Virus record (IMG/VR): IMGVR_UViG_3300028048_000013
Direction: 5' to 3' (one strand)
DNA from: a virus
DNA: 46,118 bases
Positions 1-46,118 of the stretch are shown here, one piece after another. A program made the translations under genes and the position numbers. The notes under the pieces were generated by a model. It did no database searches. It was not told the DNA's origin and saw nothing but the letters and a program-made list of their open reading frames with translations. The stretch's first letter is position 1; every line of letters begins with the position of its first letter.

Positions 1-127
1 CCCGGTTGCGGTTTGCCAATTACTTTACGGCGTTCTGTTGCGGCGTGGAATTTTGGTCGTTCCTTGAAAACGCGGCCGTTATTTCGGACCATCCCATATT
101 CCGTTGGTTACGCCGATTTATGAAATT
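1..127. repeat. Terminal direct repeat copy 1, identical to 45992..46118 (circular-assembly overlap or terminal redundancy)
   Basis: Base-by-base comparison of both window ends: 1..127 equals 45992..46118 exactly. Confidence 0.97.
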
Positions 128-188
128 CAAGGTTGAGGACCAAATCGGAATGACGTTTGAGGAAGCACAAAAGGACGTGGCAAAATGA
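1..188 (+). CDS. 3' end of the same holin gene (wrap-around); total about 157 aa
   Basis: In frame with 45706.. across the 127-bp overlap. Ends ...FMKFKVEDQIGMTFEEAQKDVAK, TGA at 186..188, overlapping the next ATG (ATGA). Confidence 0.6.
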   Translation, partial: RLRFANYFTAFCCGVEFWSFLENAAVISDHPIFRWLRRFMKFKVEDQIGMTFEEAQKDVAK

Positions 189-2430: not shown

Positions 2431-2457
2431 AACCGTCCCGATTGGGGCGGTTTTTTC
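2431..2457 (+). terminator. Rho-independent terminator after the lysis block
   Basis: AACCGTCCC GATT GGGGCGGTT stem (one G-U) followed by TTTTTT. Confidence 0.7.
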
Positions 2458-2612
2458 GTTCCATCCCGGATTTGGCCGTTTTTAGGCGATTTGCGGGGCT
2501 TTCACGGTCCGGGTGGTACAAGTTATCGTCCGGGCCGTAAAAGTGTCTTAAATCGAAGAAACGCAAAAAATAACTTATTTTGCACGAAAGTTTGAAAAAT
2601 AATCAACTTTTT

Positions 2613-2643
2613 TTTGGTAGTTAAAAAATAATGACTAACTTTG
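2613..2643 (+). promoter_or_regulatory. Bacteroidota-type promoter P1 (-33 TTTG 2613..2616, -7 TAACTTTG 2636..2643)
   Basis: 19-nt spacing between boxes; part of a roughly 110-nt cassette repeated at P2, P3 and P4. Confidence 0.7.
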
Positions 2644-2647
2644 TACC

Positions 2648-2688
2648 CGGGTTGAGGTTATGACCCGACGGCCGGGGCCGGTTCCCCG
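2648..2688 (+). promoter_or_regulatory. Two-hairpin 5' leader of P1
   Basis: CGGGT..ACCCG (2648..2667) and CGGGG-CCGGTT-CCCCG (2673..2688); same architecture with compensatory changes in P2-P4. Confidence 0.6.
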
Positions 2689-2707
2689 AACAAAAATAAC
2701 AACAGTT

Positions 2708-2941
2708 ATGGCAACGTTAAAATACACAACCCGCGAAATCAACGGCAATTACAAAATCAAGGTTTCCGGCCTGTTCGATGGCAAAAAGGTTAATACGCTT
2801 GTGGGCGTTTCCGGGTTCCTTAAAATGGTCAACGATATTGAACTTTGCAACCGTCTTTTGGACCGGGCGTTTAACGATATGTCCGATTGTTGTGTGTGCA
2901 AATTACGTCGCGGATTGAAGATTTCATTTTACGTTCATTGA
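2708..2941 (+). CDS. Hypothetical early protein (77 aa)
   Basis: ATG at 2708, 19 nt after leader hairpin 2. The upstream in-frame ATG at 2660 lies inside the leader hairpin. Confidence 0.65.
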   Translation: MATLKYTTREINGNYKIKVSGLFDGKKVNTLVGVSGFLKMVNDIELCNRLLDRAFNDMSDCCVCKLRRGLKISFYVH

Positions 2942-2949
2942 AAAATTAC

Positions 2950-2957
2950 TATCTTTG
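2950..2957 (+). promoter_or_regulatory. -7 box TATCTTTG upstream of the HNH endonuclease gene
   Basis: Matches TAnnTTTG; no clean -33 TTTG seen. Confidence 0.45.
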
Positions 2958-2987
2958 CAACGAACGGTTGTTTGCCCCAACCGATAC

Positions 2988-3050
2988 GAAATTTAATGCC
3001 CTGTAAAGTAAATCCACGGGGGCAAAACGTGGGTTGAAATACGGGGCGTT
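2988..3050 (+). promoter_or_regulatory. Structured leader element copy A (63 nt), terminator-like
   Basis: Outer helix AATGCCCTGTA/TACGGGGCGTT, inner helix CCACG/CGTGG, then T7 and the ATG. Paralogous to 9973..10035. Confidence 0.6.
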
Positions 3051-3059
3051 TTTTTATGT

Positions 3060-3542
3060 ATGGAAAAATGGAAAGATGCGCCCGGATTCCCCGGGTATCA
3101 AGTAAGCGACACGGGCCGCGTGAAACGTTCGATAAACGGAAAGATGTTGCGCCCGGTTCGTTATTCCAATGGTTATTACGTTGTCAATTTGTCCGGCCGT
3201 CGTATTGGCGTACATCGCTTGGTTGGATTGGCATTTATTCCGAATCCGGACGGGTTGCCGCAAATCAACCACAAAAACGAAATCAAGACGGATAACCGGG
3301 TTGAAAATTTGGAATGGTGCGATTCCAAATACAACAACAATTATGGATTAAGAAATCAAAAAGTAAGTGTTTCGCTTTCGAAGCCGGTTAAACAGTTAAC
3401 CCGGGACGGCATATTGATTCGTGTATTTTACGGCATCCACGAAGCCGGGCGGGAAACCAATATTAATTATCGAAATATTTACCTTGTTTTAGCCGGTCAA
3501 AGGAAAACGGCGGGCGGTTATAAATGGGAATATGCGTTATGA
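3060..3542 (+). CDS. HNH homing endonuclease (NUMOD4 N-terminus, HNH_3-type core)
   Basis: MEKWKDAPGFPGYQVSDTGRVKR...VHRLVGLAFIPNPDGLPQINHKNEIKTDNRVENLEW. Confidence 0.85.
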   Translation: MEKWKDAPGFPGYQVSDTGRVKRSINGKMLRPVRYSNGYYVVNLSGRRIGVHRLVGLAFIPNPDGLPQINHKNEIKTDNRVENLEWCDSKYNNNYGLRNQKVSVSLSKPVKQLTRDGILIRVFYGIHEAGRETNINYRNIYLVLAGQRKTAGGYKWEYAL

Positions 3543-3706
3543 CTGTTGAGGATATAAGGAAAGAAATTGCCCGGCGGCAATCATTCATTCACGACGCGTT
3601 AATTGGCCAATCGCCGGAAGATTTGGAACGGCATTGGCGGTTGATGGGTGCGCAAGATGCGTTCAAGGGAATGTTACAATTCATTGATGAAAACAACCAA
3701 AAATAA
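3539..3706 (+). CDS. Hypothetical protein (55 aa)
   Basis: ATGA overlap with the HNH gene stop; frame of track ORF 3524..3706. Confidence 0.55.
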   Translation: MTVEDIRKEIARRQSFIHDALIGQSPEDLERHWRLMGAQDAFKGMLQFIDENNQK

Positions 3707-3712
3707 ACAGAT

Positions 3713-3949
3713 ATGCAAAAATTCAAATTTGGCAATCCGGCGTCGGTCGTTGAGGTTTCGAAAAGCCCGTTGGACCGTCCGGAACCGGGCAACCGGTACA
3801 CGATTTTCGATTGTCTTTGCCGGGGATTCGGGCAAAACAACAAAGGCCCGCGCAAGACGTACCAAATAACCGCAACCACGCCGTCGCAAGCCGCCCGAAT
3901 GGCGATTGACTTTTACCGTAAAGATTTTTTCAGCAATGGCACGGAATAG
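3713..3949 (+). CDS. Hypothetical protein (78 aa)
   Basis: ATG-initiated ORF, tight packing, TAG stop. Confidence 0.6.
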   Translation: MQKFKFGNPASVVEVSKSPLDRPEPGNRYTIFDCLCRGFGQNNKGPRKTYQITATTPSQAARMAIDFYRKDFFSNGTE

Positions 3950-4226
3950 CAAAAGCACGAAAGGCGATGAATACCGCGCCATAATGGAAAAAGACGGTAT
4001 TCGGGAATACAAGGTTTTGGCGTTCGTGTTCCTTTCGGATATGGGACCGCAATATTTCCATTACGAATTGATGATGGCGGACCCGCGCCCGGTTTATTAC
4101 CTGTTCGATTGTTTCGGGGAAACGGCCCAAGTAATCGTCCCGAATAACGAACCGGAAAACGAACGGATGTGCATACAGTTGGCCGAATCTTGCGGCGGTT
4201 CAAAGACAACCCCAAATTTGCGATAA
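3936..4226 (+). CDS. Hypothetical protein (96 aa)
   Basis: First ATG in track ORF 3906..4226 (the track start is TTG). Confidence 0.55.
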   Translation: MARNSKSTKGDEYRAIMEKDGIREYKVLAFVFLSDMGPQYFHYELMMADPRPVYYLFDCFGETAQVIVPNNEPENERMCIQLAESCGGSKTTPNLR

Positions 4227-4227
4227 G

Positions 4228-4785
4228 ATGGAAACAAACCGAATCGTCGAAGAATTACGCGCCAAGGCGTCGTTCGATTGGAACCCGGAACAAAAGGCGT
4301 GGTTCGAACAACAGGCAAACGACGCCCGGCCGGTCCAATGCGTCCGGATGCGCGACGCGTTCACGCCGGAACAATTGCAATTCCTGTTCAAGAATACCGG
4401 GTACAAGACACAACAAAAAATGTGTTACAGGAACGCGGCGGAATTGGTCGAACGTGTGGCGTGGATGGCCGGGCATTTCGACCCGGACGTACCCGAAACA
4501 AAATACGTTGAGGGCTTCGCGTATTGTTACGGCCTGTTACCCATCGAACACGCGTTTGTCAAGGTCGGCGACCTGTACGTGGACCCGACCTTTGAACGGG
4601 CCTTGCATCGGGACGTTCGCAAAGAAATTTACGCATCTTGCATCGAATTGGACTTTGAAACGATGGCCCGTTACCAAGTGGAAACCGGCTTTTACGGCGA
4701 ATTGTACGTGTACGATTATATGTGCAAGAATCGGCCGGAATTGGCCGCCCAAATCCGGGCACGTAACCCGCACAACAGGCGATAA
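4228..4785 (+). CDS. Transglutaminase-like / papain-fold cysteine peptidase candidate
   Basis: Ordered Cys-His-Asp: KMCYRNAAEL ... PIEHAFVKVGDLYVDPT resembles the C..A / HAW.E / DPT pattern of the transglutaminase-like superfamily. Confidence 0.45.
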   Translation: METNRIVEELRAKASFDWNPEQKAWFEQQANDARPVQCVRMRDAFTPEQLQFLFKNTGYKTQQKMCYRNAAELVERVAWMAGHFDPDVPETKYVEGFAYCYGLLPIEHAFVKVGDLYVDPTFERALHRDVRKEIYASCIELDFETMARYQVETGFYGELYVYDYMCKNRPELAAQIRARNPHNRR

Positions 4786-4813
4786 AAAACCGCACCCGGT
4801 TTCCCGGGCGCGG
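4784..4813 (-). terminator. Rho-independent terminator for the minus-strand gene
   Basis: On the minus strand: CCGCGCCCGG GAAA CCGGGTGCGG then TTTTTT. The single mismatch on the plus strand becomes a G-U pair on the minus strand. Confidence 0.6.
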
Positions 4814-4894
4814 CGGTCAAAATACCGTGTGGGCGATACGTGGGTAAAAAGACACGGCAAAGATAGGGAATTTCCGGGATAATCCGGCGGTTCC

Positions 4895-5038
4895 CTATTT
4901 CTTTTTGCTTTGCGTGGGCTTTTCACGATACCCGGCCGCGTATGCGGCGCGGCCTTGGCGTTCGGCCTGTTCTTTGGTGGGATAGACTTTGCCGGTTTGG
5001 CCCCATTGGTAGCCGCCCGGCACACGTTTAACGGGCAT
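4895..5038 (-). CDS. Small conserved-looking protein (47 aa), the only minus-strand gene found
   Basis: Hand translation gives MPVKRVPGGYQWGQTGKVYPTKEQAERQGRAAYAAGYREKPTQSKKK. It is below the 60-aa track cut-off and has its own -7 box and terminator. Confidence 0.55.
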   Translation of the reverse strand: MPVKRVPGGYQWGQTGKVYPTKEQAERQGRAAYAAGYREKPTQSKKK

Positions 5039-5066
5039 AACTGTTGATTTTTGGTGTTATCGTATG

Positions 5067-5074
5067 CAAATATA
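5067..5074 (-). promoter_or_regulatory. -7 box TATATTTG on the minus strand
   Basis: The reverse complement of CAAATATA matches TAnnTTTG, about 28 nt upstream of the minus-strand ATG at 5038. Confidence 0.5.
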
Positions 5075-5147
5075 CCGGGTTCGGCCCGGAATCTTGCACC
5101 CGGAACCCGAAAAAATGCAATTTTTTGCGAAAAATTAAGAAAAATTG

Positions 5148-5177
5148 TTTGGTATTAAGAAAAAAACACTATCTTTG
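5148..5177 (+). promoter_or_regulatory. Bacteroidota-type promoter P2 (-33 TTTG 5148..5151, -7 TATCTTTG 5170..5177)
   Basis: Member of the repeated cassette; divergent from the minus-strand promoter. Confidence 0.7.
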
Positions 5178-5181
5178 TACC

Positions 5182-5221
5182 CGGAACGTTGATGGTTCCG
5201 ACCGACCGGGCGGGTTCCCGG
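5182..5221 (+). promoter_or_regulatory. Two-hairpin 5' leader of P2
   Basis: CGGAAC..GTTCCG (5182..5200) and CCGGG-CGGGTT-CCCGG (5206..5221). Confidence 0.6.
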
Positions 5222-5244
5222 AAACAGTATTGACCGTTTTTGTT

Positions 5245-5451
5245 ATGGCAATCAACATCAATTCCAACCCCAACATCCGCGAATATCGCGTTATGTATCT
5301 TTTCGGCGCGTGGGTTACAAAAGAAATCATCTTTGCCGAATCCGACGACGAAGCGAAATACGACGCGGCCGAATCCGCCGAATCGCTTAAAAATTGGCCT
5401 TATGCCGTGGCCCTGTTTTGTGGCAATCGCAAGGTCGTTTCTTACAAGTAA
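5245..5451 (+). CDS. Hypothetical early protein (68 aa)
   Basis: ATG 23 nt after leader hairpin 2; MAININSNPNIREYRVMYLFG... Confidence 0.65.
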   Translation: MAININSNPNIREYRVMYLFGAWVTKEIIFAESDDEAKYDAAESAESLKNWPYAVALFCGNRKVVSYK

Positions 5452-5461
5452 GTTGAACCCC

Positions 5462-5481
5462 GGGGCCGGTCGCCCGGCCCC
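5462..5481 (+). promoter_or_regulatory. Intercistronic GC hairpin (8-bp stem), exactly 17 nt before the ATG at 5499
   Basis: GGGGCCGG TCGC CCGGCCCC flanked by AACCC and AACAA. Confidence 0.6.
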
Positions 5482-5498
5482 AACAATCCAAAAGCAAT

Positions 5499-5732
5499 AT
5501 GAAATACGGAATCAAGCGCGTTATTTCCATCCCGGTTGAACAACGCGGAATCATTGACGAAACCGGATGCCGCCGGTACACAATGACGTTGGAACAGTTG
5601 CAAGCCCTGTACAAGCAATTCGAAAATTTCGTGGCCGATTGCCCGCAACAGGAATACAACGAAAACAAATCGGCAATCATCGCGGTTTATTCGCTAATCC
5701 ATAAACACATCAACAACGAAATTTACAAGTAA
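5499..5732 (+). CDS. Hypothetical early protein (77 aa)
   Basis: ATG-initiated track ORF. Confidence 0.7.
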   Translation: MKYGIKRVISIPVEQRGIIDETGCRRYTMTLEQLQALYKQFENFVADCPQQEYNENKSAIIAVYSLIHKHINNEIYK

Positions 5733-5739
5733 CGATTGG

Positions 5740-5762
5740 CCCGGGAATCATCCCGGGTTTTT
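5740..5762 (+). terminator. Rho-independent terminator
   Basis: CCCGGGA ATCA TCCCGGG followed by TTTTT. Confidence 0.75.
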
Positions 5763-5764
5763 CG

Positions 5765-5772
5765 TATCTTTG
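5765..5772 (+). promoter_or_regulatory. -7 box TATCTTTG immediately after the terminator
   Basis: Matches TAnnTTTG; no clear -33 box. Confidence 0.4.
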
Positions 5773-5806
5773 CCATTGCTTTTTAGTTTCATAAACGATT
5801 ATGTGG

Positions 5807-5846
5807 GAACGGCCAATGTTGCGAAACGTCGGCCGTTCTTTGTTTT
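5807..5846 (+). terminator. Hairpin plus T-tract about 40 nt downstream of the 5765 box
   Basis: GAACGGCC (5807..5814) pairs with GGCCGTTC (5831..5838), followed by TTTGTTTTG. Confidence 0.45.
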
Positions 5847-6041
5847 GCCCGTATAGGCCAATTTCGGGCGATTTGGCGGCGTTTCCCGGCAAAATGGACC
5901 AACGGACCGTCCGGCGGCCGAAAGGCCCGTAAAACGAAAATCCGGGAAAAATAAGTGTTGGCCGGTCCGGCCCGGTCCCGGTCGGCCAAAAACGGTTTCT
6001 TAATGGCCGAAAAAGAATTTTTGAAAAATTATCAACTTTTT

Positions 6042-6072
6042 TTTGGTAATTAGGAAATAATACCTATCTTTG
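6042..6072 (+). promoter_or_regulatory. Bacteroidota-type promoter P3 (-33 TTTG 6042..6045, -7 TATCTTTG 6065..6072)
   Basis: 19-nt spacing; nearly identical to P1 from TTTGAAAAAT through GTACCCGGGTTGAGG. Confidence 0.75.
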
Positions 6073-6077
6073 TACCC

Positions 6078-6117
6078 GGGTTGAGGAACCAACCCAACCG
6101 ACCCGGCGGGTTCCGGG
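6078..6117 (+). promoter_or_regulatory. Two-hairpin 5' leader of P3
   Basis: GGGTTG..CAACCC (6078..6095) and CCCGG-CGGGTT-CCGGG (6102..6117). Confidence 0.6.
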
Positions 6118-6135
6118 GACTTAAAAACAACGACA

Positions 6136-6333
6136 ATGAACACAATTGAAACCGCCAACCGCACCAAAACAACGTATTTCGTTGAGTACATTTGCGACGA
6201 CCTTAACAACACGTATTGGCAATTGGTCCGTTCCCGTGACGCGGCAATACTTGCGGCCCACAAAGATTTGAACGACATTTACGCCCATTGCTTCATTTGC
6301 GGGATTAACAAACAGGACGTGACGATTTGGTAA
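6136..6333 (+). CDS. Hypothetical early protein (65 aa)
   Basis: ATG 18 nt after leader hairpin 2. Confidence 0.7.
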   Translation: MNTIETANRTKTTYFVEYICDDLNNTYWQLVRSRDAAILAAHKDLNDIYAHCFICGINKQDVTIW

Positions 6334-6340
6334 ATAACCC

Positions 6341-6360
6341 GGCCCCGGGCAACCGGGGCC
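6341..6360 (+). promoter_or_regulatory. Intercistronic GC hairpin with GCAA tetraloop, exactly 17 nt before the ATG at 6378
   Basis: GGCCCCGG GCAA CCGGGGCC flanked by AACCC and ACAA. Confidence 0.6.
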
Positions 6361-6377
6361 ACAACAACGAAAGAATT

Positions 6378-6629: not shown

Positions 6630-6637
6630 GAACCCGA

Positions 6638-6653
6638 CCGGGCGGATTCCCGG
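6638..6653 (+). promoter_or_regulatory. CCGGG-CGGATT-CCCGG hairpin
   Basis: Same stem and loop family as the leader hairpin 2 copies; 7 nt before the ATG at 6661. Confidence 0.55.
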
Positions 6654-6660
6654 AACTGTT

Positions 6661-7098
6661 ATGCGATTCAAGATTGATGAAAATTTGAAACGGGTTGCGG
6701 CCGCCAAGGCGGCCCGCCCGGAAACCGTGGCGGTCGAACTTTTGGCCGCGTTGGTTGATGCGGGAATGATTGAGGACCCGAACGACAATTGGGGCGAATC
6801 CGTGTTGATTGCGACCGGCCCGCAATACGTTTCCGATGTTTGCGCCGTTTTGGCCGAATACCTGTACAACGACGAAACCCGTTCCATTCCGGCCGACGTG
6901 TTCGACGCGTTTTGCGCCCTTATCGTTTGGGGCGATGGCGATTGCCCGCATTGCGGCGGCGAATTGGAATTTGTCGAAACAGAGGGCCACGAACTGAATG
7001 ATGGCGATTATTACACGCCCAATTCATACGTCGTTGATAATTACGTTTATCGTTGCGCCGAATGTGGCGAATACATTAAAACCCCAAATGAATTATGA
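6661..7098 (+). CDS. Zinc-ribbon protein (145 aa)
   Basis: CPHCGG ... CAECGE pair. Start chosen after the hairpin; an upstream in-frame ATG at 6559 would overlap the previous gene by 70 nt. Confidence 0.6.
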   Translation: MRFKIDENLKRVAAAKAARPETVAVELLAALVDAGMIEDPNDNWGESVLIATGPQYVSDVCAVLAEYLYNDETRSIPADVFDAFCALIVWGDGDCPHCGGELEFVETEGHELNDGDYYTPNSYVVDNYVYRCAECGEYIKTPNEL

Positions 7099-7325
7099 TG
7101 CGAATTGAACAAGCGATTGCCCGCGCAAAGGAACAGGGCAACAAAGTGTTGAAAAAAGACATTGCCGCCCGGTTGTGGCCCGATTCCACGCCGGTTGCAC
7201 AACAGGTTAATTTTACCCGTCTTTGCGCCGGGAAAACCCCGCGCATTTACGAAGAATGGGTTAAAATCATTTGCGAAATGACCGGTTGCACGGCCGATTT
7301 TCTATTTGGACTTTCAAACGAATAA
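7095..7325 (+). CDS. XRE-type helix-turn-helix DNA-binding protein
   Basis: LKKDIAARLW...VNFTRLCAGKT...MTGCTADFLFGL is typical of short Cro/CI-type HTH proteins. Confidence 0.55.
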   Translation: MMRIEQAIARAKEQGNKVLKKDIAARLWPDSTPVAQQVNFTRLCAGKTPRIYEEWVKIICEMTGCTADFLFGLSNE

Positions 7326-10875: not shown

Positions 10876-11636
10876 CGTACCAATTTGATACAGATATTGC
10901 CGCCCTGTATGGCGTGGACGAATCCATAATGATTGCCAATTTGCGATTTTGGATTCGCAAGAACGAAGCGAACGGCAAACATTTTCACGATGGCCGTTTT
11001 TGGACGTATAACAGTATTGAAGCGTTTACGAAATTGTTTCCGTTTTGGACGGCCCGGCAAATCCGGCGTGTTCTCAAATCTTTGGAAGAAAAAGGCGTAA
11101 TTGTCACGGGGAATTATAACACGTCCGCATACGACCGGACAACGTGGTACGCTTTCGGCGATTCGTTCTTACAAAAAGGACAAAAGCATTTTACCGAATC
11201 GTCAAATGGTAACGACGAATCGGGCAAATCCGTTATAAATAACGTAACAGATATTAAACCCGATAATAAACCAAATGAAGCCGCCGACGGCGGTTTGTTC
11301 CCGACCGAACCGGCATTTGAAACGGTTACAGTTACCCGGCCGCGCCGGACCGCCGAACCGGCCGCGTGTCTATTCGAAAATTCCCGGTTCGCCGAATACA
11401 ACGCGTTTGCCGCCGAATTTACGGCCCCGGAATTTGCCGACGTGGATATGGTCTATTATTACCACGCCGTCGCGGATTGGTCCGCGCAAAAGGGCAAGAA
11501 AATGAAAGATTGGATTGCAACGGCGCGTAACTTTATCCGGGGCGATATGGAAAAGGGCAAGTTGCACCGGAAAAGCGGAACCGGCCCGGGATTGTCCCCG
11601 GATGCAATCAAATATTTGCAAGATATGGCCGATTAA
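10872..11636 (+). CDS. Replication organizer, DnaD/phage-O-like winged-helix N-terminal domain
   Basis: YGVDESIMIANLRFWIRKNEANGKHFHDGRFWTYNSIEAFTKLFPFWTARQIRRVLKSLEEKGVI. Confidence 0.5.
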   Translation: MTYQFDTDIAALYGVDESIMIANLRFWIRKNEANGKHFHDGRFWTYNSIEAFTKLFPFWTARQIRRVLKSLEEKGVIVTGNYNTSAYDRTTWYAFGDSFLQKGQKHFTESSNGNDESGKSVINNVTDIKPDNKPNEAADGGLFPTEPAFETVTVTRPRRTAEPAACLFENSRFAEYNAFAAEFTAPEFADVDMVYYYHAVADWSAQKGKKMKDWIATARNFIRGDMEKGKLHRKSGTGPGLSPDAIKYLQDMAD

Positions 11637-13801: not shown

Positions 13802-14074
13802 ATGGACCGAATCTTTGTTGTCGTAACGCCTGTTTGCCCGCATTACCCCGGGCGCAAGTTAGGTTCGAAAGAGTGTACGCAATGCGACCATTTCCGGGGC
13901 GGAATCGTACAAAATTTCGTGGATTGCGCACACAATCGGCCGGAAATAGAACAGAAAACCCCGAAATCGGCACGGAAAGCCGCCAAAATAGCACAACCGG
14001 CCAAGAAAAGAGGACGGCCCGCGAAAAAGGCCATTTCCAAGCCCGTAAAGACACGCAAAAAGAAAAATGGATAA
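13802..14074 (+). CDS. Cys/His-rich protein with basic AT-hook tail
   Basis: CPH...CTQCDH...CAH, then KKRGRPAKK and KTRKKK. Confidence 0.65.
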   Translation: MDRIFVVVTPVCPHYPGRKLGSKECTQCDHFRGGIVQNFVDCAHNRPEIEQKTPKSARKAAKIAQPAKKRGRPAKKAISKPVKTRKKKNG

Positions 14075-14297
14075 GTTGTACCAAGACGGGCAAAAATGCC
14101 CGCAAATCGAAAATTTGGCAAAAATAACGCCCGAACAGGCGGCGGAATACGTGCGATTCGTCGCACACGTCCGGCATACGCAACGCCGGTATTTCACTTT
14201 CCGCAAACCGGAAATCTTGGATGAATCCCGGCGGTTGGAAAAAGAGTTGGACGCGTTGAACGCGCATTTGTTGGACCCAACACCACGGTTGTTTTGA
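14067..14297 (+). CDS. Hypothetical protein (76 aa)
   Basis: ATG-initiated track ORF. Confidence 0.65.
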   Translation: MDKLYQDGQKCPQIENLAKITPEQAAEYVRFVAHVRHTQRRYFTFRKPEILDESRRLEKELDALNAHLLDPTPRLF

Positions 14298-14815: not shown

Positions 14816-14846
14816 TTTGGTATTATAAAATTTATCCTTATCTTTG
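14816..14846 (+). promoter_or_regulatory. Bacteroidota-type promoter P4 (-33 TTTG 14816..14819, -7 TATCTTTG 14839..14846)
   Basis: 19-nt spacing; fourth copy of the cassette. Confidence 0.7.
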
Positions 14847-14850
14847 TATC

Positions 14851-14890
14851 GGGTTAAGGAAACAACCCAACCGTCCGGGCGGGTTCCCGG
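14851..14890 (+). promoter_or_regulatory. Two-hairpin 5' leader of P4
   Basis: GGGTT..AACCC (14851..14868) and CCGGG-CGGGTT-CCCGG (14875..14890). Confidence 0.6.
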
Positions 14891-15077: not shown

Positions 15078-15148
15078 TGCGCCGTGGTGTAACGGCAACA
15101 CCCCGGATTTTGGTTCCGGTAATCCCCGTTCGAATCGGGGCGGCGCAA
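15078..15148 (+). tRNA. tRNA-Gln, anticodon UUG
   Basis: Cloverleaf folded by hand: acceptor TGCGCCG/CGGCGCA (U1-A72, as in bacterial tRNA-Gln), D arm GTGT/ACAC, anticodon arm CCGGA-TTTTGGT-TCCGG, T arm CCCCG-TTCGAAT-CGGGG. Confidence 0.85.
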
Positions 15149-15222
15149 CAAAAAGGGCCGCAAGCCCTGTTCTGTTAAAATTCCCGGGCAAGTAAGGCCG
15201 CGACGGCACGAACGCCCAACAA

Positions 15223-15303
15223 ACCCCCGTGGCGTAATGGTAGCCGCGATGGACTCAAAATCCATTCCCGCAAGGGGTGCCGGTTCGATTCCGGCCGGGG
15301 GTA
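15223..15303 (+). tRNA. tRNA-Leu, anticodon CAA (type II, long variable arm)
   Basis: Acceptor ACCCCCG/CGGGGGT, anticodon arm ATGGA-CTCAAAA-TCCAT, variable arm TCCCGCAAGGGGT, T arm GCCGG-TTCGATT-CCGGC. Confidence 0.85.
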
Positions 15304-15313
15304 CGAAAACGGA

Positions 15314-15329
15314 CCGGGCCGATTCCCGG
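15314..15329 (+). promoter_or_regulatory. CCGGG-CCGATT-CCCGG hairpin
   Basis: Same family as the leader hairpin 2 copies; 19 nt before the ATG at 15349. Confidence 0.55.
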
Positions 15330-21742: not shown

Positions 21743-22168
21743 ATGAACAAAGTATTTTTGAAAGGGAACGTCGGCCAAGACCCGCGCATTACCACGTTCC
21801 AAGACGGCGGAAAGGTTGCACAATTCACGTTGGCAACGACCGAACGCGGCTTTACGACCCGGGACGGCAAACAGATTCCGGACGTAACAGATTGGCACAA
21901 TATCGTTGTCAAGCGCACCGGCCTTGCGGGCGTGTGCGAACAATTCGTGAAAAAGGGAACCCCGCTTTTGATTGTGGGAAAGATTCAAACCCGGCAATAC
22001 CAAGACAACGGCGGACAAACCCGGTACGTTACCGAAATCGTCGTTGAAGAAATGGAATTGTTGGGCGGAAAGAAGCCCGAACAGGCCCCGGCCCCGGCCA
22101 CGGAATACACGCCCGGCGGCGGTTATCAACCAATGGGCGGCGATGATGATTTGCCCGCCGGATTCTAA
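21743..22168 (+). CDS. ssb: Single-stranded DNA-binding protein
   Basis: MNKVFLKGNVGQDPR...TDWHNIVV...KGTPLLIVGKIQTRQY OB fold, Gly/Pro linker, acidic tip DDDLPAGF. Confidence 0.9.
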   Translation: MNKVFLKGNVGQDPRITTFQDGGKVAQFTLATTERGFTTRDGKQIPDVTDWHNIVVKRTGLAGVCEQFVKKGTPLLIVGKIQTRQYQDNGGQTRYVTEIVVEEMELLGGKKPEQAPAPATEYTPGGGYQPMGGDDDLPAGF

Positions 22169-24812: not shown

Positions 24813-26357
24813 ATGGACGTTGATACGATGCAAATAACCCGGGCGTTATCAGAACACCCGGAATTGTTCTTACAAGAGGGCGCACGGCGAAACCTGTTGT
24901 GGTTTGCGGAATATATGGACCCGAACTTTCAACCGACGCCGTTTCATAAAGCGTATTACCGCGTTTTGGATATGTTCGCAAAACGTTGGATTAAGAAATT
25001 GATTATACAGGCCCCGCCGCAACACGGCAAATCGCAAGGGTCAAGCCGGTTTCTTCCGGCCGATATGTTGGGATTATACCCGGATATTCGTATTTGCATT
25101 TGTTCGTATGCGGCAACGATTGCAAAGGATTTCAACCGGGACGTTCAACGGTTGATTGATTCGGAAAATTACCGGGCCGTTTTCCCGGAAACAGTATTGA
25201 ACGGGTCCAACGTCGTAACGGTTGCCAACAATTACTTGCGCAATTCGGACGTGTTCGAAATCGTGAATCATACCGGTTCGTTGCGCGTCGTTGGCCGTGG
25301 CGGTTCGTTGACGTCAAAGACGGTTGACGTTATGATTTACGACGATTTGTACAAGGATTCGTCGGAAGCCAATAGCCCGATAATCCGGGCGGCCGCGTGG
25401 GATTGGTTCACAAAGGTTGCACAAACCCGTTTGCACAACGATTCGCAACAACTAATCGTGTTTACGCGATGGCATCCCGACGACATTATTGGCAAAATCA
25501 TTGATTCGGAAAAGGTCGTATTTGTTGAATCGTGGTCAGACCTTGAAAACATCCCGTCCGGGGCGTGGGTATTGGTCAATTTTGAAGCAATCAAAACCGG
25601 GCAACCAACGGAAATTGACCAACGCGAAGCCGGGCAACCGTTGTGGGCGCAACGCCATTCGTTGGAACGCTTGTTGGCGCAAAAACAATTGGACCCGTTG
25701 GGTTTTCAATGCCTGTACCAAGGTAACCCGGGCGACGCAACCGCATTTTTGTACCAACCGTTCAAAACGTGGGTCGAAAAATCGGATTGGGGCCAATATA
25801 TCCGTTCCGGATGTTACGTTGATGTTGCCGACCAAGGCGACGACTTTTTGTTTGCCGCGTCTTATGACATTTACAAATCGGAAAACCAAATTTGGAATGA
25901 GAACAAACGCCGGTACGAACCGTTGTTGTTCGCTCTTATAACCGACGTTGAATTTACCGACGAATCAACGGATGTTACGGCCGTAACCGTTCCCCGGATG
26001 ATAAACAACAATGGCGTTCAAAAAGCGTGGATAGAATCGAACAACGGCGGGTCCCAATTCGAAAAGGCCGTGAAAAAAAAAGTTCGGGCGTTGACCGTTC
26101 CGTTTTACCAAGGCGAAAACAAAGAATCCCGGATTGTCACGAACGCGCCGTTTGTAAATCAACATATCATTATGCCGTTCGGATGGGAAAGCCGGTACAA
26201 GAAATTCCACGACCATATTGTGGGATTCTTGCGCAAGTTTGACGCGAACGAACACGACGACGACGCCGACGGATTGACCGGAATATACGAAAAGGAAATT
26301 GCCGACGGGAATACGAAACCATACGGCGCGGCCAATCGTGGCGTCCGTGTCCATTAA
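24813..26357 (+). CDS. Terminase large subunit
   Basis: Walker A-like QAPPQHGKSQ, Walker B VDVMIYDDLY, C-terminal nuclease-like acidic residues; size and position fit. Confidence 0.8.
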   Translation: MDVDTMQITRALSEHPELFLQEGARRNLLWFAEYMDPNFQPTPFHKAYYRVLDMFAKRWIKKLIIQAPPQHGKSQGSSRFLPADMLGLYPDIRICICSYAATIAKDFNRDVQRLIDSENYRAVFPETVLNGSNVVTVANNYLRNSDVFEIVNHTGSLRVVGRGGSLTSKTVDVMIYDDLYKDSSEANSPIIRAAAWDWFTKVAQTRLHNDSQQLIVFTRWHPDDIIGKIIDSEKVVFVESWSDLENIPSGAWVLVNFEAIKTGQPTEIDQREAGQPLWAQRHSLERLLAQKQLDPLGFQCLYQGNPGDATAFLYQPFKTWVEKSDWGQYIRSGCYVDVADQGDDFLFAASYDIYKSENQIWNENKRRYEPLLFALITDVEFTDESTDVTAVTVPRMINNNGVQKAWIESNNGGSQFEKAVKKKVRALTVPFYQGENKESRIVTNAPFVNQHIIMPFGWESRYKKFHDHIVGFLRKFDANEHDDDADGLTGIYEKEIADGNTKPYGAANRGVRVH

Positions 26358-33447: not shown

Positions 33448-33576
33448 TTTGAACTAAACTTGTAAGTTAATTTTCCAAGAAATGGCGTATAACGGGCTTT
33501 CGCCGGAAAGATGATAAATTACCCGTCTTTTTGACGAAAGCCCCGGAAAACGCCCAAAAACGGCCAAAACGGGGAT

Positions 33577-45713: not shown

Positions 45714-46118
45714 AACGATAACATTATACCCGGCAAAGATTTTGGCCGGAATCCTTGCCGGGTTCCTTTCCGTATTCGTCGAAAACCTGTTGCCGTTGTT
45801 CATAACGGTAACGGTTTTCGAATTGGTTGATTTCATAACCGGCGTTATCAAATCGGCCGTCGTGGCCAAGCGTACCAAACAACGGTTTGCGTTCGAATCG
45901 GTAAAGGCGTGGCGGACCATATACAAATTCGTTTTTATATTGGTCGGTATCGTATTGGCCGAAATGTTGGACCAAACCGTTGCCGCCGAAACCCGGTTGC
46001 GGTTTGCCAATTACTTTACGGCGTTCTGTTGCGGCGTGGAATTTTGGTCGTTCCTTGAAAACGCGGCCGTTATTTCGGACCATCCCATATTCCGTTGGTT
46101 ACGCCGATTTATGAAATT
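45706..46118 (+). CDS. Holin (Phage_holin_4_1-like), 5' part; frame runs off the window end and continues at 128..188
   Basis: ATG at 45706 overlaps the fibre stop (ATGATTAA). Translation MIKTITLYPAKILAGILAGFLSVFVENLLPLFITVTVFELVDFITGVIKS... has three hydrophobic segments and the DxxTG motif. It sits directly upstream of the endolysin once the circle is closed. Confidence 0.6.
   Translation, partial: MIKTITLYPAKILAGILAGFLSVFVENLLPLFITVTVFELVDFITGVIKSAVVAKRTKQRFAFESVKAWRTIYKFVFILVGIVLAEMLDQTVAAETRLRFANYFTAFCCGVEFWSFLENAAVISDHPIFRWLRRFMK
45992..46118. repeat. Terminal direct repeat copy 2, identical to 1..127
   Basis: Same comparison; unique genome length is 46118-127 = 45991 bp. Confidence 0.97.

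Follow-up and report, generated by a model that had tools for sequence, protein, structure and literature searches.

Here we describe a structured RNA element that recurs upstream of early genes in IMG/VR record IMGVR_UViG_3300028048_000013, a viral sequence of 46,118 nucleotides (nt) analyzed as a whole (hereafter the window). The element is a compact pseudoknot of the H-type, as predicted by comparing related leaders, and both of its helices are backed by compensatory changes. We regard it as a cis-acting phage leader RNA and as a new RNA motif family. In four cassettes (P1–P4) the pseudoknot is combined with a promoter and a 5′ hairpin (hairpin 1), but it is a conserved, portable unit that occurs without either of them as well. 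The interpretation we prefer, with a probability of roughly 40%, is that the pseudoknot serves as a post-transcriptional signal on the adjacent downstream cistron, where it would affect how translation initiates or what becomes of the mRNA, while hairpin 1 would guard the 5′ end.

The preliminary description of this DNA had recognized a leader with two hairpins, of which the first is retained here and the second turned out to be the pseudoknot. A pattern covering the −7 promoter box and "hairpin 2" retrieved 35 stretches from ~20 uncultured viral genomes of 40–46 kb, several with 3–4 copies, and a looser match inside these stretches gave 59 cassette instances with 50 distinct leaders. The three bases preceding hairpin 2 were complementary to the first three bases of its loop in all of the 50 leaders. 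The layout of the alignment is a(3)-N-b(5)-a′(3)-NUU-b′(5), and the order of the segments a, b, a′ and b′ is that of an H-type pseudoknot, comprising a stem 1 of 3 bp, a 1-nt loop, a stem 2 of 5 bp, no spacer and a 3-nt A/U-rich loop (loop 3), 20 nt in total. One nucleotide across the deep groove of the 5-bp stem 2 and three across the 3-bp stem 1 fit the classical rules of pseudoknots. Two alternating hairpins may form in place of one pseudoknot, but a 3-bp stem 1 would be unstable on its own.

The covariation that the preliminary description proposed to test was found in the 50 leaders (the window plus 35 related loci), in which 95.6% of the alignment cells were paired, compared with 81.8% after shuffling. 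Among the 14 pairs of this alignment (hairpin 1 and both stems), nine had changed on both sides, none of 500 shuffles reached the observed values, and slid controls were paired at 23–57%. The middle pair of stem 1 was CG in 24 leaders, GC in 24, UA in one and UG in one, and was unpaired in none. When the alignment was confined to the pseudoknot (42 sequences), 96.4% was paired and both sides had changed in six of the eight pairs, again without an equal in 500 shuffles. Since the search pattern had fixed part of the element, two tests independent of stem 1 were run. A scan of the viral collection for stem 2 and the loops (ACCGGGNNNTTTCCCGG) gave 120 matches, 51 of which had a perfect stem 1 (~1.6% expected). 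In the other test, anchored on homologs of the protein encoded by the open reading frame (ORF) first after cassette P1 (ORF1; 2708–2941), a perfect 8/8 pseudoknot was present in 38 of 55 distinct 70-nt upstream regions, compared with 0.66 in shuffles.

Both stems covary over more than 100 instances in related phage contigs. We counted at least nine types of stem 1 (CCG:CGG, CGG:CCG, ACG:CGU, UUG:CAA, CUG:CAG, CAG:CUG, CGC:GCG, CCC:GGG and CCU:AGG) and at least 13 types of stem 2 (CCGGG:CCCGG, CCCGG:CCGGG, CGGGG:CCCCG, CGCGG:CCGCG, UGAGG:CCUCA, CACGG:CCGUG, UGCGG:CCGCA, UCGGG:CCCGA, CCAGG:CCUGG, CCGGA:UCCGG and CGCAC:GUGCG, together with the G-U variants CGGGG:CCUCG and UGGGG:CCUCA). The types of the two stems combine freely and assort independently, the innermost pairs of stem 2 vary as well (CGCAC:GTGCG, CCGGA:UCCGG), and loop 3 is found as GUU, AUU, UUU, AUA, UUA or (G/A)AUA. 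The G-U pairs occur only on the sense (+) strand and would read C-A on the opposite strand; thus, the structure belongs to the sense RNA. A function at the RNA level, earlier argued from structure being kept while sequence changes, now has statistically backed covariation and sense-strand G-U pairs in its favor.

It is very improbable that the element is instead a DNA operator or recombination site bound by a phage protein, e.g., the HTH protein of 7095–7325, the RNA structure being incidental. Some variants do contain a 12-bp palindrome (such as CGGCCCGGGCCG), an Xre-like HTH gene lies in the P3 unit (following the annotation of PDS1_12), and the cassettes appear prone to recombination. Most variants have no palindrome, however, and all the pseudoknots, the six in the window and those of the relatives, lie on the coding strand with none reversed, including promoter-less copies after tRNA genes and between cistrons. 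We rejected a DNA palindrome or operator for two reasons: the interleaved segments covary independently, which is the signature of a pseudoknot and not of a dyad operator, and the G-U pairs keep pairing on the sense strand only.

A covariance model of the pseudoknot, applied to the window with filters off, detected exactly six copies (32.6–40.7 bits; the next match scored 19.3 bits), so the four copies counted previously were too few, two of the six having no promoter (Table 1). The 16-mer of hairpin 2 was found 13 times in the window at up to three mismatches, against 1.5 expected, and single-sequence folding predicted hairpin 1 and stem 2 in all four cassette leaders. Loop 3 is GUU in the four promoter copies and AUU in the two promoter-less copies. 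Of the latter, pseudoknot 4 precedes the gene of a Zn-ribbon protein (6661–7098) and pseudoknot 6 starts 5 nt after tRNA-Leu (15223–15304); both contexts recur in relatives, with the stem-1 types CGG:CCG and CCG:CGG. The relatives' counterpart of pseudoknot 4 directly abuts a stable 9-bp hairpin ending the preceding ORF. Its equivalent in the window is the hairpin at 6338–6361 (CCCGGCCCCGG-GCAA-CCGGGGCC), just after the ORF 6136–6333, and an extra ORF of ~270 nt separates this hairpin from pseudoknot 4. The promoter-less copies (CCGGG-CCGAUU-CCCGG) resemble the T-arm of tRNA, from which they differ in topology. The match at 19.3 bits (25164–25192), considered as a seventh copy, was discarded as a mere hairpin (CCGGGCCGTTTTCCCGG) without stem 1 in the coding region 24813–26357; it shares its downstream tail, AAACAGTATTGA, with the P2 leader, which may be chance or a relic.

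Table 1. Promoters, leader structures and accompanying features of the window, in order of position.
Feature	Position	Strand	Sequence, score and context
Intrinsic terminator closing the late/lysis unit	2431..2457	+	upstream of P1
Upstream stretch of P1	2465..2570	+	weakly similar to 5848-5951; includes phased T-tract element 2463-2503
Promoter P1	2575..2643	+	-33 TTTG 2613-2616; 19-nt spacer; -7 TAACTTTG 2636-2643; predicted start ~2648
Hairpin 1 of P1	2648..2667	+	CGGGUU...GACCCG; fold and covariation
Pseudoknot 1 (P1)	2669..2688	+	CGG-C-CGGGG-CCG-GUU-CCCCG; 33.7 bits; ATG 2708 19 nt on
Promoter P2	5110..5177	+	-33 TTTG 5148-5151; 18-nt spacer; -7 TATCTTTG 5170-5177; predicted start ~5182
Hairpin 1 of P2	5182..5200	+	CGGAAC...GUUCCG; fold and covariation
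Pseudoknot 2 (P2)	5202..5221	+	CCG-A-CCGGG-CGG-GUU-CCCGG; 40.7 bits; ATG 5245 23 nt on
Intrinsic terminator closing the P2 unit	5738..5764	+	upstream of P3
Promoter P3	6005..6072	+	-33 TTTG 6042-6045; 19-nt spacer; -7 TATCTTTG 6065-6072; predicted start ~6077
Hairpin 1 of P3	6078..6095	+	GGGUUG...CAACCC; fold and covariation
Pseudoknot 3 (P3)	6098..6117	+	CCG-A-CCCGG-CGG-GUU-CCGGG; 36.8 bits; ATG 6136 18 nt on
Pseudoknot 4 (promoter-less)	6634..6653	+	CCG-A-CCGGG-CGG-AUU-CCCGG; 32.6 bits; 7 nt before ATG 6661
Promoter P4	14780..14846	+	-33 TTTG 14816-14819; 19-nt spacer; -7 TATCTTTG 14839-14846; predicted start ~14851
Hairpin 1 of P4	14851..14868	+	GGGUU...AACCC; fold and covariation
Pseudoknot 5 (P4)	14871..14890	+	CCG-U-CCGGG-CGG-GUU-CCCGG; 36.6 bits; ATG 14906 15 nt on
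Pseudoknot 6 (promoter-less)	15310..15329	+	CGG-A-CCGGG-CCG-AUU-CCCGG; 37.8 bits; 19 nt before ATG 15349

When all leaders were searched against Rfam 15 at E-values of up to 10, no match was obtained, the preQ1, SAM-II/V, fluoride and guanidine-III families included, and Rfam scans of the window and one cultured relative at the gathering threshold and at permissive settings returned only two tRNAs and chance-level matches. Literature searches retrieved no description of the pseudoknot element. With six copies on unrelated early genes and no Rfam match, a riboswitch is unlikely.

The 128-bp direct repeat at the ends of the window (1–128 and 45991–46118) indicates a complete, circularly closed phage genome of ~45,990 bp, and the host group of this phage is Bacteroidota. 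No match to cultured phages was obtained in a megablast search with the first 20 kb of the window, and the relatives were recovered by protein and pattern searches only. Protein homologs of ORF1 are encoded by cultured siphoviruses of Bacteroidota, namely Alistipes phage AS73P1, Parabacteroides phages PDS1 and the PD series, Croceibacter phage P2559S, Bacteroides phages C1_85S2P and BKO1-3, and Elizabethkingia phage TCUEAP2. Their genomes are 40–47 kb in size and share the gene order of the window, in which lysis genes are followed by small ORFs with recombination and replication genes, two tRNA genes, more replication genes and the structural genes, nearly all on the + strand. In one record, a capsid protein is annotated as similar to that of Bacteroides phage B40-8.

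Among the cultured phages, AS73P1, PDS1, BKO1-3 and TCUEAP2 possess a pseudoknot of the form ACG-A-C(C/G)GGG-CGU-UUU-CC(C/U)(C/G)G. Preceding it is a promoter of the same type, with the −7 box ~18 nt before the first base of the pseudoknot and, in most cases, no hairpin 1 in between; in the gut clade, the pseudoknot lies 12–15 nt from the predicted start. ORF1 and ORF2 are separated by 45 nt that hold a second copy, ~295 nt downstream of the first one. The ATG of the Zn-ribbon gene of the cultured phages is preceded at exactly 7 nt by a pseudoknot variant of its own, in which loop 3 has 4 nt. No pseudoknot is found in PD691P4 or Croceibacter phage P2559S, which bear the promoters or the ORF1 homolog. 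Thus, the pseudoknot is widespread but optional within the phage family, and hairpin 1 is largely a feature of the rumen clade. In a scan of bacterial and archaeal genomes, 34 of the 122 matches listed had a complementary stem 1, a proportion near chance with high-G+C genomes dominating, and the only clear low-G+C pseudoknots among these matches were found in phage-like leader contexts (L055, L069 and L140). Upstream of the ORF1 homologs in a subset of relatives (L306, L308, L336 and L338), a different conserved leader (…GAACTTCGCGGTGTGATTAC…) replaces the promoter and pseudoknot, and may be another type of promoter or leader. We also noticed that some deposited genes start upstream of the promoter or pseudoknot (AS73P1 11041–11343; PDS1 1886–2203 and 4430–5050), so that the leaders are hidden in coding regions; the true starts are likely the ATGs 18–21 nt or 7 nt after the pseudoknot. 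Similarly, the longest-ORF start of the window ORF 2660–2941 runs over the P1 leader, and ATG 2708 is the likely true start.

The four cassettes lie where they had been reported and are made up as described there, with an A/T-rich stretch, TTTG, 18–19 nt, TA(A/T)CTTTG, hairpin 1, a second G+C-rich structure and the ATG. The motif TANNTTTGTA occurs seven times in the window against 1.4 expected, a number reached in none of 100 shuffles. The primary sigma factor (sigma-A) of Bacteroidota recognizes the consensus TTTG/TAnnTTTG with ~19 nt spacing and no G at the n positions (PMC6847099). All four cassettes match this consensus exactly, with AC or TC at the n positions, and they head blocks of small ORFs and replication genes after the lysis genes, in agreement with the earlier promoter assignment. 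From these sequence features, P1–P4 are probably strong host-type promoters for early genes, the early timing being presumed. The transcription starts in Table 1 are predicted from the rule for Flavobacterium johnsoniae that places the G of the −7 box at −5 (PMC6847099). Candidate −7 boxes without a pseudoknot are found upstream of later genes (21717, 26458 and 34847).

The distance from the end of the pseudoknot to the ORF start is 14–22 nt in 106 of the 112 instances with a callable ORF (mode 19–21), with outliers at 7 nt and 28–31 nt and a few ORF1 leaders at 6 nt; the range of 15–23 nt given earlier for the four cassettes was confirmed by measurement (Table 1). The 7-nt spacing before the Zn-ribbon ATG is invariant in both the rumen and gut clades despite wholly different stem sequences. 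The pseudoknot is associated with the first cistron behind each promoter and with cistrons preceded by an untranslated gap such as tRNA genes or a stable hairpin. Bacteroidota mRNAs have no Shine-Dalgarno sequence, and adenines upstream of the start and a low degree of structure between −20 and +20 modulate initiation (PMC6847099). We favor a post-transcriptional signal because the distance to the start codon is constrained and places the pseudoknot just outside this −20 to +20 region, because two copies can fall within 300 nt of one transcript, and because the element occurs where translational coupling is impossible, one class having the exact 7-nt spacing. A signal acting once per transcript would hardly call for a second copy ~295 nt further on. 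We therefore envisage a transcript that would begin with the 5′-terminal hairpin, followed by the 20-nt pseudoknot, an unstructured A-rich spacer and the start codon. The pseudoknot would be a self-contained RNA signal marking a small set of early cistrons, none of which could be translated by coupling to an upstream gene. Placed at the upstream edge of the 30S binding window, it may set initiation where hosts make no use of Shine-Dalgarno pairing, either as a structure docked on the ribosome platform or as the binding site of a trans-acting factor, and its effect on initiation may influence mRNA fate as well. As the same type of cassette precedes different ORFs in different contigs, the 110–130-bp cassettes may in addition provide the homology through which phages exchange early ORFs.

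A more specific form of this idea, in which the pseudoknot is a Shine-Dalgarno-independent recruiter of ribosomes, seems quite unlikely to us. The anti-Shine-Dalgarno tail of Bacteroidota ribosomes is sequestered, and a preformed 8-bp coaxial helix would dock either on the 30S platform or in the empty chamber of the Shine-Dalgarno helix; in the 7-nt class, the helix would occupy the position of the Shine-Dalgarno duplex. If true, such a recruiter would let the early cistrons initiate de novo and outcompete host mRNAs. For a trans-acting factor, we compared gene contents. Homologs of three window genes (1769–2374, 6661–7098 and 14067–14297) are present in all of the four pseudoknot-bearing cultured phages and absent from the two pseudoknot-free ones, although this phyletic profile is weak, as only two pseudoknot-free genomes were compared and they are also the most distant ones. 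As a lead only, the Zn-ribbon protein (6661–7098) may be the more suggestive candidate for a partner, as the 7-nt pseudoknot at its own start would suit autoregulation. The confident structural model of this protein (pLDDT, the predicted local distance difference test score, 87.5) had no significant neighbor in PDB, with E = 0.17 for the best match and only generic zinc ribbons returned, and comparisons with Pfam and PHROGs gave nothing informative.

Several observations weigh against a post-transcriptional signal. The folding energies of the leaders are no better than those of shuffled sequences (z from −1.1 to +0.3), so that the support for the structure is comparative and not thermodynamic. 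In the early region, a pseudoknot is missing from about half of the untranslated gaps of more than 40 nt, so de novo initiation does not generally require the element. Genome compaction together with a minimal initiation region of ~15–20 nt could account for the narrow distance to the ATG, and a stable structure 7 nt before an ATG would ordinarily inhibit initiation, not promote it. The pseudoknot-free PD691P4 and the pseudoknot-bearing PDS1 both infect Parabacteroides distasonis, indicating that the pseudoknot is not imposed by the host. Finally, our searches identified no binding partner, the Zn-ribbon protein having no informative fold match.

The positions of the copies also call to mind processive antitermination of the type of HK022 put or lambda nut, in which the nascent pseudoknot, with or without a phage protein, would modify RNA polymerase to read through terminators, and where tRNA processing severs the tether to the upstream copy, the copies after tRNA genes would arm the polymerase anew. 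Like put and nutL, the element is found directly behind each strong early promoter, the intercistronic copies recall nutR, and the combination of hairpin and pseudoknot is reminiscent of the two-stem put RNA. In addition, copies 5–8 nt after tRNA genes are kept across relatives, the genes lie on one strand in long units with terminator-like hairpins within or after them, and the shape common to phages of Bacteroidia and Flavobacteriia hosts fits a conserved target such as RNA polymerase. On the other hand, copies ~295 nt apart on one transcript of the cultured phages would be redundant, and the tight distance to the ATG, including the exact 7-nt class, has no rationale for such a site. The P1 and P2 units still end in strong terminators, the pseudoknot-free −7 boxes before later genes leave no obvious need for read-through, and no arginine-rich N-like protein was found among the translated early ORFs. 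Antitermination is appealing for the copies behind tRNA genes but accounts less well for the spacing and the close duplicates, and we consider it unlikely.

The arms of hairpin 1 pair in all four copies as listed in the preliminary description. In the 50 leaders, 91.7% of this helix is paired and both sides have changed in four of the six pairs. The first base of the hairpin is the predicted transcription start or the base after it, and the pseudoknot follows 2–3 nt downstream. Its loop and stem vary freely, unlike the fixed geometry of the pseudoknot. Most instances of hairpin 1 come from the rumen clade, and the single cultured example is in phage AS73P1, in which a hairpin and then a pseudoknot occur at one promoter. 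Hairpins stabilizing mRNA at the 5′ terminus are classically known from Escherichia coli ompA, and the position of hairpin 1 at the predicted +1 fits a stabilizer of this type, which would protect the mRNA from 5′-end-dependent decay. Pairing of the 3′ arm (AACCC) of hairpin 1 with GGGUU inside the pseudoknot was considered and dismissed, as by eye it is not conserved (e.g., P2 has GUUCC).

If protection were the role of the pseudoknot as well, it would be a passive module: stable folds without a partner would shield 5′ ends, whether primary or left by the processing of tRNAs or hairpins, from ribonucleases and keep the A-rich initiation region from mispairing with RNA upstream, and the cassette would be a recombination linker. 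We judge this somewhat unlikely. Consistent with it, the pseudoknot mostly lies near a real or likely 5′ end (the starts of the gut clade, the 3′ ends of tRNAs, or behind hairpin 1 in the rumen clade), constraint is loose on sequence and strong on shape, and the element is optional within the family. The cassettes are also mosaic in relatives, for which the PeSL cassettes offer a precedent (PMC2839356). Yet passive folds would not be expected to keep one exact geometry (3 bp, 1 nt, 5 bp, 0, 3 nt) in distant clades, the 12–15 unpaired nt before the pseudoknot of the gut clade would probably not block 5′-end sensing of the RNase E type, and the exact 7-nt class argues for a positional role.

Upstream of the promoters, the homology previously reported between P1 and P3 exists but is weak. 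The local alignment of 2465–2570 with 5848–5951 scores 28, while shuffles score 15.4 on average (standard deviation 2.1, maximum 24), and the two cassettes share a near-identical 22-nt stretch immediately upstream of the −33 box. The homologous region includes a phased T-tract element of ~40 nt (CCCGGATTTGGCCGTTTTTAGGCGATTTGCGGGGCTTTC; 2463–2503) with tracts every ~10 bp and a diverged copy at 5855–5895. A third copy (88%) is inverted, lying on the − strand at 33536–33576 in a late intergenic gap far from any cassette. This element may be bent DNA or a protein site. In the upstream part of P3, 5916–5954 matches the 5′ coding end of homologs of the gene 14067–14297 in related phages and looks like a relic gene fragment. 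With the upstream stretch being weakly similar and rich in T-tracts, the inverted third copy remote and part of the P3 region relic-like, the shared operator suggested earlier is not supported.

Some additional features of the window were recorded. The P4 mRNA contains tRNA-Gln(UUG) and tRNA-Leu(CAA) within 15078–15304, neither of which encodes CCA, and a hairpin between them at 15154–15168. There are two likely homing endonucleases (695–1336 and 3060–3542), one with what appears to be a GIY-YIG-like N terminus, the other with HNH and NUMOD domains, inside the P1 unit and with its own −7 box (TATCTTTG at 2950). A small minus-strand gene of 47 amino acids (MPVKRVPGGYQWGQTGKVY...; 5038 to 4895) is divergent from P2 and has its own −7 box (TATATTTG; 5074 to 5067) without a pseudoknot. 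The hairpin at 4789–4814 is terminator-like when read on the minus strand.

Among known systems, the PeSL cassettes of T4-type phages carry a stem-loop at or around the promoter that is the terminator of upstream transcription (PMC2839356, PMC4122927). As in the window, these are multi-copy intergenic cassettes of ~100 bp with an A/T-rich stretch, a strong early promoter for the host sigma factor, a G/C-rich structure and a small ORF of unknown function, and in related phages a given cassette stands before different ORFs, which would imply recombination within the cassettes. Unlike those of PeSL, the structures described here lie downstream of the predicted start and are followed by an A-rich stretch with no U-tract, and separate terminators are present upstream. 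The cassette also includes a covarying pseudoknot that is found promoter-less as well, and belongs to siphoviruses of Bacteroidota with another sigma consensus and no Shine-Dalgarno element.

The put sites of HK022, which mediate factor-independent antitermination, consist of two stem-loops in ~65–70 nt; they contain no pseudoknot and are not tied to the position of a start codon. Both put and the leaders of the window are structured two-part RNAs in multiple copies just after early promoters, with action in cis on the sense transcript (as proposed here), but there is no similarity in sequence or model, the leaders have no Rfam match, and the two parts here are a hairpin and a pseudoknot. Lambda nut shares with the present element the promoter-proximal and intercistronic location of RNA sites in early operons; in contrast, we recognized neither a boxA nor a boxB-type hairpin with its GNRA-like loop, none of the translated early ORFs has the arginine-rich N terminus of an N-like protein, and the copies number six as opposed to two. 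The leader pseudoknot of T4/T2 gene 32, a single autoregulatory site on the SSB gene, is tied to translational control and mRNA stability. Like the element described here, it is a compact H-type pseudoknot close to the 5′ end, has a first loop of 1 nt and precedes an unstructured A/U-rich stretch that leads to the start codon, but the present element has six copies on unrelated early cistrons and shorter stems (3 + 5 bp). The SSB gene of the window (21743–22168) has only a −7 box and no pseudoknot upstream. The rpsO pseudoknot, bound by S15, is a single-copy autoregulatory site of the host that overlaps the Shine-Dalgarno sequence and docks on the 30S platform. The pseudoknot here likewise precedes a start codon, and it could be placed on the ribosome platform, with a protein trapping or releasing it; it differs in being a multi-copy phage element of hosts without Shine-Dalgarno pairing. 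The element thus lacks at least one defining feature each of PeSL, put/nut and the T4 gene 32 leader.

The pseudoknot is a candidate for a new RNA family in Rfam, and its recognition bears on annotation, as gene callers and deposited records run over-long ORFs across the leaders. The compact module of promoter and leader could serve in expression tools for Bacteroidales. Little is known about gene regulation in phages of Bacteroidota, the hosts of which include dominant bacteria of the human gut and the rumen, and the pseudoknot offers a testable handle on the control of early expression in these phages, uncultured and cultured.

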